Shown here piece by piece: positions 20,643 through 44,568 of a stretch of DNA of 64,000 bases. How positions within the stretch are numbered: the stretch's first letter is position 1; each line of letters opens with the position of its first letter. Under the pieces are notes generated by a model that saw only the letters and a list, made by a program, of their open reading frames with translations, searched no databases and was not told the origin of the DNA. The position numbers and the translations under genes were made by a program. The DNA lies in contig CAVWVQ010000003.1 in NCBI GenBank assembly GCA_963758525.1, positions 1,344,001 through 1,408,000 of the forward strand. The letters run 5' to 3'. Source of the stretch: an uncultured Phycisphaerales bacterium (GTDB taxonomy: Bacteria; Planctomycetota; Phycisphaerae; Tepidisphaerales; Tepidisphaeraceae).

Positions 20643-22438
20643 ATGCCCATGATTTCCCCAGATCAGGCTAAGGACGAATATGACGTGGTGATCGTCGGCT
20701 CCGGCGCGGGCGGAGGACAAGCGGCATACACGCTCACGCTTGCCGGCTTCAAGTGCGTGATGCTGGAAGCGGGACGCAGCTATGACCCCGTTAAAGAGAC
20801 GCCGATGTTTCAGGCGAACTGGCAGGCGCCGATGCGCGGCGCGTCCATTCCGGGGAAGCCGTTTGGCTTTTACGACGCGACGGTGGACGGCGGGTGGGAA
20901 GTGCCCGGCGAGCCGTACACCAGCGCACACCCGGCCGGAAGAAGAATTCAAATGGTGGCGGGCGCATGATGGGAGGACGGACCAATCACTGGGGACGTAT
21001 CTCATTGCGCAATGGGCCGTACGACTTCAAACCCAAGTCGCGCGATGGACTCGGATTTGACTGGCCGATGAGCTACGAAGATGTCGAGCCGTACTACACG
21101 AAGGTCGAACGGCTCATCGGCGTCTACGGGACCAACGAAGGGATGGAAAACACGCCGAATTCTCCCGACGGCGTGTTGCTGCCGGCGCCAAAGGGACGCG
21201 CGGTGGAGCTTCTCACGCAGAAGCACGGCAAGGCGATGGGAGTTCCGTTTATCTCCGCGCACCGCGCGGTGCTTACCCGGCACCTCGATTGGAAAAACCT
21301 GCCCGCGAAGCTCCACCCGGGCAACAAATGGGCGCAAAAGATCGTCCGCGAGGCAATGGCCAATCGCTCGGCCTGCTTTTGGGCAACCAGTTGCGGCAGG
21401 GGTTGCTCGGTTGCGGCAAATTATCAGTCGACCACAGTGCATCTTCCGCCGGCGCTGGCGACGGGAAATCTTGATCTGATCTCCAACGCCCACGTCCGCG
21501 AGGTACTGGTCAACAAGGACGGCAAAGCGACCGGTGTGCTGTTTATTGACAGAACGACCGGAAACGAACGCCGTGTGAAGGGGAAGGCGGTCATTCTCGC
21601 CGCCGGCTCATGCGAGACGCTGCGCATCCTGTTGAACTCGAAGAGCAGCGGCAATCCGGCGGGTGTTGCGAATTCAAGCGGCCTGGTCGGCAAATATATC
21701 ATGGATACGACCGGCGCTGGTATGTCCGGTCAGATCCCGACGTTGGAAAATCTGCCGCCGTTCAACGAAGACGGAGCTGGCGGGCTGCACTTCTACGCGC
21801 CGTGGTGGCTCTATCAGGAGCAGAAGGCCGGCAAGTTGAACTTCGCGCGCGGGTACCACATTGAATTTGGCGGGTCGCGCCAGATGCCGGGCGCGGATAG
21901 TCCAGTGCCTGCGGAGTTGGCACGCGGAAGTTATGGCACGAAGTTCAAGGAAGACGCACGCCGGTATTTCGGTTCGTTTGTCTTCTTCGACTGCCGGGGG
22001 GAAATGATCCCCAACGAGCATTCGTATGCCGAGCCCGATCCGAACGTGAAGGACCGCTGGGACATCCCCGTGCTGCGGTTCCATTGGAAGTGGAGTGAGC
22101 ATGAGCTGAACCAGGTCGTGCACTCGCAGAAAATCTTCGCGGCGTTGATCGAATCGATGGGCGGCCGCGTCGACGGAAAGCCGGCCGGCGAAGGGTATGA
22201 ATGCATCAAGCGGCCCGGTTTCATCATTCATGAAGTCGGCGGGACGATTACTGGCGACGATCCGAAAAAGTCCGTCTGCAATCAATGGAGCCAAACCTGG
22301 GACGTGAAGAACCTGTTCCTCTGTGACGGCGCGCCATTCGCGTCCAACGCGGATAAGAATCCGACGCTCACGATCCTCGCGCTGAGCTGGCGGGCATGCG
22401 ATCACCTGATCGATGAGGCGAAGAAAGGAAACCTGTGA
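20643..22438 (+). CDS. GMC-family FAD oxidoreductase (frameshifted at ~20930-20965)
   Basis: [15 protein letters not shown] motif; [24 protein letters not shown]. Confidence 0.92.
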
Positions 22439-23133: not shown

Positions 23134-23284
23134 TTGTCAAGGTCAGAGAACGCCGAGAAGCACAAGAACAGCGGGAACGCTCAGGATCACGATGATCTGC
23201 GACACCACGATCGTCGCCAGGACGTGATCGAAGCGAAGGTATTTCCTGTACGCCACGCAGAGGCGATAGCTGAGGAAGTGGAAC

Positions 23285-23526
23285 GGGGACGCAGCTAGTT
23301 ATTCCGCGCTTACCGCTCACATTTTCCCACCTTTCTGAATCTTCTTCGGGCGGCCCTCGCGGCGGACGGTATGGCCAAGACCCAGCTCATGGGCCATCTT
23401 GGCCGTCCACCCGGCGTTGCCCAGCGGCCGGCCACGTCGTTCGCTGGTTTCGATCGCCTCCCGCTCGGCGTCAGTCGGGGGCTGGTTTACCAGTTCAATC
23501 CGCTCCCGTCCACGCTCGACCGGCCA
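23285..23526 (-). pseudogene. 3' remnant of a REP-associated tyrosine transposase (RAYT) with adjacent REP-like motif
   Basis: WPVERGRERIELVNQPPTDAEREAIETSERRGRPLG..WTAKMAHELGLGHTVRREGRPKK (stop 23317), followed by aataactagctgcgtcccc. Confidence 0.7.
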
Positions 23527-23791
23527 GGAGAAACTAAAGAACGTCTATCGTCACCAAGGCGCAAAGCCTGACGCTCTCTCGGGTCACCAACGCCTGATAC
23601 GGCAGCGTGGGGTCACTCCCCTGATGTGCCAGTATGGCGAGACGTGACCGTTGCAAGGAGAGAGTGGCCGCTGAAACCTCAATGCCCCACCCTGATTGCA
23701 AAGTCTGTTTTTGCCGCCGACCGCGGCAGCCGAAGGTCTATGCACTAAACATTGTCGCCCAATTCATCCATGGCAGTCTTTAGTTCTCCCC
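23526..23791. mobile_element. 266-bp non-coding element with 14-bp imperfect terminal inverted repeats and an internal long hairpin
   Basis: AGGAGAAACTAAAG ... CTTTAGTTCTCCCC; same ends recur at 44476-44537; genes on both sides break at the ends. Confidence 0.6.
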
Positions 23792-23918
23792 TGCCGGATT
23801 CAAAGCCCGGGTTCGCCAGCAATTGGGTGCTGGACATGAGGACGCGACCTGGAAGCGCCTCGATGACGCATCCCATGTTCGTTCGTTTGCGACGCTGCTT
23901 GTTCTTTTCTGCGGCCAT
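23792..23918 (-). pseudogene. N-terminal stub of a planctomycete secreted protein
   Basis: MAAEKNKQRRKR...IEALPGRVLMSSTQLLANPGFESG (LEPRxLL-like motif plus NPGFE), cut at the element end. Confidence 0.6.
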
Positions 23919-26884: not shown

Positions 26885-27442
26885 TGGATTCCTCCCATTT
26901 GACTTGTGCCACACCATCGTCGCGAATGCAGTAATAACCGGATTCCACTCGGAGTCAAGAAGAATCGTCGTTGCAATTTCGTAATGCGTCCTCTGAAGGC
27001 TTCGATTTCGCGTTGCACAAGGGTTTGGAAATCAAGGCGCGGCGGGCTGCTGCGGATTTGCCATTGTGGTTTCTTCTTCATGCGCACCAAAAACGACAGA
27101 GTTGGTGCCATGACTGTGACACTCATGGCCGCCTCCGAAGGTTGTTGTCTTGGAGCAGTTCGGAACCTCCCGCCCTCGCGAGATTCCGTTTGTCCAATCG
27201 CTCCCCATCCCATCGCCCTGACCCAGGATGAGCCGGGTGGAATGACTGATACCTATGAAGCGTGCGCGGCTTTGAGCGAATGTCACCTTGCGGGAATTTA
27301 TTTTGACCCCGCCCCGTCGCTGGAATGTACCCGGCCTGCACGATACCTTGATTTCCGGAAAATGAGCGAACTCTCGGGCGAATTGCGCGAACTCCAATTG
27401 CTTCTGGACCGGCACCTTGCGGGTGAAGCGGGCGGAAAGCTG

Positions 27443-27750
27443 TAAAGGTGACATCCACCGTTTTCATTTGTCATGTTCCGGCACCTTCGGCCGCGTCTCG
27501 GATTCAGAGTGTACTGCAGCCACATCCGGCCGGCCATTTTCGGGGTCGAGGGATCGACACCGAGGCGGCCGGCCACGCTCGAAGCTGAGTGCGACCGTGC
27601 GACCCGTTTTACCGCGGCCGGATCGATCGGCTCGTTCACCAGCGCCGTCCAGTTCCGCGGGCGGTCGATTGGCCAATCGTCGAGGAGCTTTCTGGCCAGC
27701 TCCTTTTGGCAGCCCAGGCTGGACCAGTGCCAGTCCTGCGCCCGCTCCAT
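27443..27750 (-). pseudogene. Second degraded RAYT 3' remnant with REP-like end
   Basis: ERAQDWHWSSL...LLDDWPIDRPRNWTALVNEP...ERGRP (frameshifted), followed by ggtggatgtcacctttac. Confidence 0.7.
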
Positions 27751-27990
27751 GGCGGCGGTTTTTCGAGCGGAAGCCAAGTGGAGTGCGGCCACGGGTTATA
27801 CTGCCGGCATCCTGCAATCTTGCTTCTCATCCGGGCTATCCGAGCCATCCGCGGTTAGATCTCTTCGGCCTCGAATGACGCGCCTCCCGGAGATACCCGG
27901 AGATGGGGCGAGGCGAGCGGCTGCTGGGGAGAGTGTCTTTCTCCCTCCCACGGGTGAAACACGCCAGCATAGTACCGCCATCAGCCACAG

Positions 27991-44440: not shown

Positions 44441-44475
44441 TGCAGGGGCGAACGATCACTCGCCGCTTTCCGGCC

Positions 44476-44537
44476 GGGAGAAACTAAAGGTGACGCGAAC
44501 CTTTATATTAAGGTTCGCGTCACCTTTAGTTCTACCC
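44476..44537. mobile_element. 62-bp miniature element with the same ends as 23526-23791, containing a perfect 22-bp inverted repeat
   Basis: gggagaaactaaaggtgacgcgaacctt tatatt aaggttcgcgtcacctttagttctaccc. Confidence 0.65.
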
Positions 44538-44568
44538 AATGGCCAACAAAGGACCAAGCCCAACGGGA

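Follow-up and report, generated by a model that had tools for sequence, protein, structure and literature searches.

The question raised by this locus is how two broken genes came to be joined by 266 bases (23526-23791) that carry inverted motifs at both ends. The window, i.e., the whole stretch of DNA that was analysed (64,000 nucleotides; positions 1,344,001 to 1,408,000, forward strand, of contig CAVWVQ010000003.1), holds the same pair of motifs around a shorter unit, and a sequence-only reading had seen in the 266 bases a non-autonomous element with asymmetric GGGnnnAACTAAAG ends, a CCGGC target preference and variable cargo. The stretch is, instead, the broken, leftover guide-RNA end of an IS110-family element and not a mobile unit itself. 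It is established that the interior is an IS110 right end, that the arms are the outer 8 bases of a repeat and that the right junction lies on a CT core; the fuller reading, which we consider very probable, is that of an orphan IS110 right end, predicted to code for a bridge RNA, between two outer arms of a RAYT-type repeat that was likely the target of the element. The features of the site, in window coordinates, are the following.

23274..23300, no strand: terminal repeat (GGGGACGCAGCTAG family) of a broken RAYT element, just past the stop codon
23317..23528, minus: 3' remnant of a RAYT-type (Y1 HUH) transposase, ~68 codons
23532..23539, plus: left outer arm AACTAAAG, cut exactly at the AG/CT core, the AG being common to the IS110 end
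23538..23779, plus: orphan right non-coding end of an IS110 element, ending ATGGCAGT-CT
23540..23581, plus: predicted target-binding loop of the bridge RNA, damaged
23549-23555, plus: left target guide CGTCAC-C, intact, within the predicted target loop
about 23564-23568, plus: place of the lost right target guide, an 11-13-nt deletion between repeated AAGCC
23582..23649, plus: predicted donor-binding loop, with the left donor guide ACGGCAG at 23599-23605
23627-23632, plus: right donor guide TGCCAG (TACCAG in most relatives; A read at 23628 in three public runs)
23778..23785, minus: right outer arm, i.e., core CT and right half of the IS110 target site
23793..23918, minus: probable 5' stub of a secreted-protein gene, 42 codons, ending NPGFESG
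44476..44537, no strand: empty head-to-head doublet with arms 44482-44531, each carrying CGTCAC-CT-TTAG

The repeat arms and the broken genes

The motif positions given earlier are correct: GGAGAAACTAAAG is at 23527-23539 with its inverted partner at 23778-23790, and the same pair recurs at 44477-44489 and 44524-44536. In the window GGAGAAACTAAAG is found five times at ≤1 mismatch (four exact) against 1.02 expected, a number reached by one of 100 shuffles. The boundaries and the nature attributed to these ends were not confirmed, the repeat starting at AACTAAAG; the “ends” are outer arms that belong to AACTAAAG-GTGACGCGAAC, the terminal repeat found in RAYT-type tyrosine-transposase elements. 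Indeed, in 37 outermost copies taken from relatives the bases ahead of AACTAAAG differ from copy to copy; 27 have G at -5 and 18 have GG at -6 to -4 (background 14%). AGGAGA and CTCCCC are thus to be regarded as flank and GGGnnn as a biased flank outside the repeat; on the left side of the site, CCGGCCAGG is RAYT coding DNA. As had been noted, three of the four ends abut CCGGC and target duplication is lacking, but the target preference drawn from this does not hold, the motif adjoining 2 of the 37 outermost ends in relatives (background 4.65%) and none of 29 ends of a second repeat family.

The bare 8-mer AACTAAAG is barely enriched genome-wide (34 seen, 21-30 expected), eight of the 34 continuing as GTGAC and belonging to the repeat family; with one mismatch allowed, the whole repeat is found in 54 of 141 genomes, many of which have just a single hit that may be due to chance. 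Free doublets occur at 44476-44537, in similar form at C3:881541-881591, and also in genomes G001, G002 and G084. The repeat lies 48-66 nt from RAYT genes in four loci of relatives (L092, L093, L101, L103) and adjoins a RAYT 3' remnant at C3:1062746 of the host genome (G000), where 23 Y1 transposase matches are found, although only 1 of 18 loose AACTAAAG-type matches falls within 400 nt of a RAYT hit; a complete RAYT element with both repeats inverted was not recovered, and no intact RAYT gene flanked by the AACTAAAG repeat was found in the genome. The occurrence near RAYT genes and as free doublets fits the TIR-flanked tyrosine transposases of PMC3733652, as far as the available text of that paper goes. 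The second repeat family, GCTGTTAAG-GTGACAT, stands beside RAYT hits in 29 of 30 cases. Its copies form the inverted ends, ~60 nt upstream and 31 nt downstream of the gene, of a multi-copy RAYT family of G000 (e.g., C3:303778-304533 and C1:316012-316768) which behaves like an insertion sequence and has purine-rich flanks.

The break of the RAYT gene at the left arm, already recognised in the earlier reading, is solid: over 256 columns up to window 23528 the remnant displays 90% DNA identity to a paralogue (C3:470996-471250), it is 68% identical to residues 161-228 of another, intact copy, and the RAYT match of an unrelated contig likewise ends at 23528. The GGGGACGCAGCTAG repeat, of which 11 of the 15 genome copies lie within 400 nt of a RAYT hit, is present here ~40 nt away (23274..23300). 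As to the gene on the right, the 42-aa stub ending NPGFESG is there in the sequence, its frame extending 16 codons into the repeat arm and the IS end, while its parent could not be confirmed: there is no Pfam hit, relatives are weak (best E 0.23) and the parent gene was not found in this genome or in five relatives. A secreted protein is nonetheless plausible from the E.LE.R.LL-type start, which is common to long open reading frames in relatives, and the stub resembles the beginning of a planctomycete secreted protein. Four relatives possess the neighbouring gene; the downstream genes differ in them, and no empty site was found. Elsewhere in the window, a second, frameshifted RAYT-like 3' remnant lies ~4 kb from the 266-base stretch (27298-27792, minus), and the upstream oxidoreductase gene (20643-22438, plus) is split by a frameshift near 20900-20970, being either a pseudogene or an assembly error.

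The interior and its parent family

The interior is matched in 12 of 141 genomes of the host's family, strongly in three (G155, G085 and G002; E 1e-30 to 1e-39), and in one locus (L012) the match begins directly after the stop codon of an IS110 open reading frame bearing PF02371. With the fragment of this frame as query, 965 longer proteins were retrieved at E ≤ 1e-20, most of the best 120 of them being ~520 aa long with PF01548 and PF02371, and one (P0002) passes the NCBIfam model NF033542 with 143.6 bits against a cut-off of 140. A metagenome scan yielded 21 loci, 13 of which have both ends and an element length of 1932-1975 bp. The parent elements are thus ~1.95 kb long and consist of a left end of ~100 bp that begins CT-GGTATG, a recombinase of ~522 aa and, directly behind its stop codon, a right non-coding end of ~280 bp that ends ATGGCAGT-CT; ten intact right ends are 69-76% identical, globally, to window 23538-23781. 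The relatives that share the right end have the DEDD (PF01548) plus PF02371 recombinase; inside the window there is none. CT is the core at 14 of 15 parsed left junctions and 19 of 20 parsed right junctions, i.e., a short shared core and no target duplication, and the IS end is conserved in relatives as far as this CT, the flank beyond it being variable.

Neither an intact parent nor a left end was found in the host genome, where the interior is single-copy except for one short, decayed piece, the sole other right end (C4:26891) is an orphan and the recombinase of this family is reduced to a 27-aa piece; the four PF02371 genes of the genome are ~31% identical to the recombinase of the parent family, a query for which was matched in 1 of the 141 genomes of the host's family. 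The 27-aa piece (G000 C3:2069940-2070060) directly adjoins a doublet of a fourth repeat family. Counting the copy in the window, right ends without recombinase number eight in four genomes, and the other seven (six in relatives, one at C4) have neither a recombinase remnant nor a left end within their loci. These orphan ends begin at varied points (L002 and L013, for instance, start elsewhere than the copy in the window), a scatter which suits ordinary decay and would tell against a left junction made by the recombinase.

The possibility that the interior is coding was rejected, the open reading frames being short and the indels of the alignment not being multiples of three. Rfam gave no match to the interior and four sub-threshold matches elsewhere, none reaching the gathering score; neither a sigma-70 promoter nor a terminator was found, and the guide-loop pattern had 0 matches in viral contigs.

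Concerning the recombinase, a check of the G--P----SG motif of the C-terminal domain in 30 aligned proteins showed G, P and S to be invariant and D, not G, to follow the serine. In P0002 and in alignment A1, ~100 C-terminal residues lie outside NF033542 and SD replaces the SG motif. A length of ~522 aa exceeds the ranges quoted in the available text of PMC11208160 (300-460 aa) and PMC11187229; no description of a ~522-aa IS110 clade was found in the literature searched, and it may be catalogued in ISfinder or in supplementary tables.

The predicted bridge RNA and its target

The right end is predicted to fold into two loops, one corresponding to the insertion sites and the other to the ends of the element itself, i.e., into a bridge RNA, and the layout of loops in two domains is that described for IS621 in the portion of PMC11208160 available. 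Over 20 sequences, 97.4% of the cells of the two-loop structure are paired, a value attained by none of 500 shuffles, and 6 of the 29 pairs have changes on both sides; since the elements are related and the structure was scored on the same sequences from which it was derived, the p values are overstated. The closing stem of the target loop, whose 5' strand is replaced in the window copy, has an alternative, because RNAalifold, unaided, pairs a CTCTCTC stretch with a downstream GAGAG stretch and leaves the target loop unclosed.

In the loop of the second domain one side has ACGGCAG and the opposite side mostly TACCAG, so that it matches ATGGCAGT-CT-GGTA, the ends of the element when joined; in the window copy the right donor guide has one changed base. 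Donor guide and element end agree in 19 of 20 cases, L054 being discordant, and in L050-L052 they change together (GGCAG to GGCAC), a covariation that represents one evolutionary event. The target guides were compared with the flanks of 11 of the 13 complete elements (L046, with too short a flank, and L056, whose loop was not parsed, were left out): the left guide matches the left flank at 56 of 77 bases (random CT sites: mean 19.4, maximum 35; swaps among elements: p=0.019), the right guide the right flank at 37 of 44 (mean 10.5, maximum 22; p=0.0066). These matches are far above those at random CT sites and modestly above those obtained by swapping among elements, with p values inflated by kinship. 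A palindromic partner within 70 nt is found for only 2 of 13 left flanks.

In the window copy the left guide, ATCGTCAC-C, matches the missing half of the target repeat at 6 of 7 bases, most relatives having G(A/T)CCC in its place; the departure from the family consensus concerns only about one position, in the way that fits the repeat. Since the left half of the target is deleted here, the match is to sister copies of the repeat and not to this site. At the other end, the bottom strand of the repeat arm reads CGCGTCAC-CT-TTAGTT and the right junction ATGGCAGT-CT-TTAGTT, that is donor left half, core and target right half, the junction falling exactly on the CT core. At C4:26891 the second orphan end meets the other GTGAC-type repeat of the genome at CT, and two public runs (X7 and X6) hold close, intact relatives, with TGTT before the closing AAG of the target loop, whose right guide fits that other repeat better than the AACTAAAG repeat; the X7 contig also spans the recombinase gene. 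From the exact right junction, the guide match, the C4 copy and the X7 and X6 contigs we infer, with good support, that the IS110 element inserted into the terminal repeat, a case, it is likely, of insertion into the end-repeat of another mobile element.

Origin of the junctions and relation to known elements

The following order of events may be inferred, with the initial and the third steps being proposals only. Copies of the AACTAAAG repeat would have arrived at G-rich sites in the RAYT gene and in the secreted-protein gene. The ~1.95-kb element would then have been inserted by its IS110 recombinase, with CGTCAC-C as left target guide, at CGTCAC-CT-TTAG of the right-hand arm. A deletion may subsequently have fused the left arm, which faces the opposite way, at its core to an AG at the start of the RNA, taking out the left end, the recombinase gene and whatever separated the two broken genes; finally, the right target guide would have been lost from the RNA. 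What is left would be inert today.

That the site bears witness to mobile-element activity, that its ends belong to a repeat family and that the enzymes are encoded elsewhere was rightly seen in the sequence-only reading. The single non-autonomous unit with ends of its own is, by contrast, largely refuted and very improbable, interior and ends deriving from an IS110 and a RAYT-type element, respectively. It could appeal to the similar flanks of both units (GGAGA on the left, CT(A/C)CCC on the right) and to a left match of 19 of 20 bases that the family-wide G bias does not account for; however, the 16 GG-n3/4-AACTAAAG sites of the genome form, as inverted pairs within 5 kb, only this pair (254 bp) and doublets of 27-50 bp, with nothing longer and no pair enclosing a transposase, so that long copies are missing. 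Furthermore, the interior is single-copy, CCGGC is at background, the right junction is an exact IS110 junction, and its pattern recurs in just 1 other of 401 genomes, with no IS end upstream of that hit. A MITE of 266 bp was likewise rejected: there are no dispersed copies with the same ends and interior and no autonomous partner, and ends and interior have different partners. Hardly more credible is that the junctions are artefacts of the long-read metagenome assembly. Nearby genes are frameshifted in the assembly, no public run has >5% of the words of the stretch, and no spanning read was found in four of the eight runs sharing 4-5% of them, but the right junction, like a second one on a different contig, lies at the very base that the biology requires, and the assembly has no intact parent of the interior available for mis-joining.

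The left junction, where RAYT homology reaches 23528, the arm occupies 23532-23539 and IS homology starts from the last two bases of the arm, admits of two explanations, weighed here as shares of the accounts of this junction only. The one to which we give slightly better than even odds is RAYT-type end processing or a plain microhomology deletion, in which the arm may be a copy of the 44476 unit that crossed into the RAYT gene within CCGGCC(A/G)GG; the 19 of 20 bases shared by 23520-23539 and 44470-44489 hint at this derivation, and a crossover between the two would need no indel. Arms are often shortened and rejoined without any IS (19 times in the loci of relatives, 6 in this genome), and 4 of the 19 truncated arms stop after 9 bases, one base beyond AACTAAAG; E. 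coli TnpA-REP, moreover, cuts at CT with low specificity and performs strand transfer, according to the part of PMC3333891 available. Nevertheless, an end at exactly 8 bases is seen in none of the 19 truncations, almost all of which are rejoined to their own flank rather than to foreign DNA, an intact RAYT flanked by the AACTAAAG repeat was not found in the genome, and E. coli TnpA-REP belongs to another RAYT group. The other explanation, a refinement of the third step above that we hold possible but rather doubtful, is that the IS110 recombinase made the junction: the left arm, a full bottom-strand target, would have recombined at its CT core with a poor CT site at the start of the RNA (a half-match), thereby excising the recombinase. 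The left arm ending exactly at its own core suggests the recombinase; the IS cut in the right arm lies at that very base, and CT stands there on the bottom strand of the two parents. A preprint reports recombination of this half-match kind, across a CT core, for IS621 (bioRxiv 10.64898/2026.08.31.748434), but one substrate there had a complete donor junction, unlike here, and the partner site agrees with the donor at just 3 of the 8 bases to the left of the core and 1 of the 4 to its right. Should the left junction be the work of the recombinase, half-match recombination would have a natural example here. A bolder extension, that the ~522-aa clade uses both RAYT-repeat arms as recombination sites and deletes its own gene and the inter-repeat DNA by half-match recombination, leaving solo bridge-RNA ends and fusing host genes, appears improbable to us; if true, these ends would be a natural record of RNA-guided genome deletion.

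As an orphan IS110 right end in a target repeat, the site may be compared with known systems, each as described in the part of its source that was available. With IS621, an IS110-group member (PMC11208160, PDB 8WT6), the parent family shares the PF01548 plus PF02371 DEDD recombinase, the CT core, the lack of target duplication, an RNA of two loops with target and donor guides, a very short subterminal repeat and targets in palindromic repeats; unlike in IS621, the RNA is in the right end and the recombinase has ~522 aa, and the window keeps only a damaged right end. ISPa11, of the IS1111 group, likewise has a long non-coding region downstream of the transposase and targets REP repeats, but that group has subterminal inverted repeats of 7-17 bp, compared with 2-4 contiguous matching bases in 13 elements here, and a guide order with the top-strand match first, whereas here the bottom-strand match comes first, as in the IS110 group, some members of which also have a downstream region (PMC11187229). 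Since it lacks long subterminal repeats and has the IS110 guide order, the parent is filed as an IS110-group element with downstream RNA, an assignment made from these features. ISPpu9 and the free ssr9 modules offer another IS110 element in REP repeats with transposase-less copies of its RNA gene elsewhere, Ssr9 being a regulatory RNA; those modules have proper boxes at both ends and are mobile, whereas the remnant, besides its damage, lacks a left end and stands opposite an inverted arm (PMC12288879). TIRtrons and TIRYT elements are RAYT-like genes with flanking terminal inverted repeats that also exist as free dimers, as here; 9 of 13 IS left flanks have, beside the core and on the other strand, GGGG(A/T)(C/G), with which their published GGGGWSAS consensus starts. 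The repeat at this site, in contrast, is AAGGTGAC and not GGGGWSAS, with only its outer arms remaining (PMC3733652, PMC6006769).

In all, the site is a genuine scar of an ordinary sort, left by a new IS110 member whose bridge-RNA end has decayed in a RAYT-type terminal repeat, and as IS110 elements targeting palindromic or terminal repeats are already known it is a new example of a known habit. Its practical interest resides in the definition of a bridge-RNA family that can be read (ends in full, CT core and four guides), has been reprogrammed in nature and goes with a long recombinase, one lineage being retargeted to GTGAC-type repeats, and in the caution that seeming inverted ends around an IS110 piece can be the halves of its target.

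Some further observations concern repeats in the window and elsewhere in G000. An abundant short repeat, CCCAATGGCCAACAAAG..., starts right at the end of the 62-bp doublet (window 44536-44560) and has >20 copies on C3 alone. At C3:124519 a lone GGGTAGAACTAAAG, which resembles what we take to be an IS91-like end, lies beside an integrase remnant and is probably outside the repeat family. A transposase start, presumably ISAzo13-like, is cut off at a RAYT terminal repeat at C3:4297650-4298074 and is preceded by a cluster of the AACTAAAG repeat. Finally, RAYT-type repeats often “stutter”, typically 3-7 nt of flank and the first 9-20 nt of the repeat being duplicated head to tail just outside; there are 19 such units in the loci of relatives (L070, L075, L093, L103, L106-L108, L117, L119, L126, L130, L132) and 6 in G000 (including C3:4297529, C1:315032, C3:2841617 and C3:224923), and the stutter may be a signature of how RAYT-type ends integrate.
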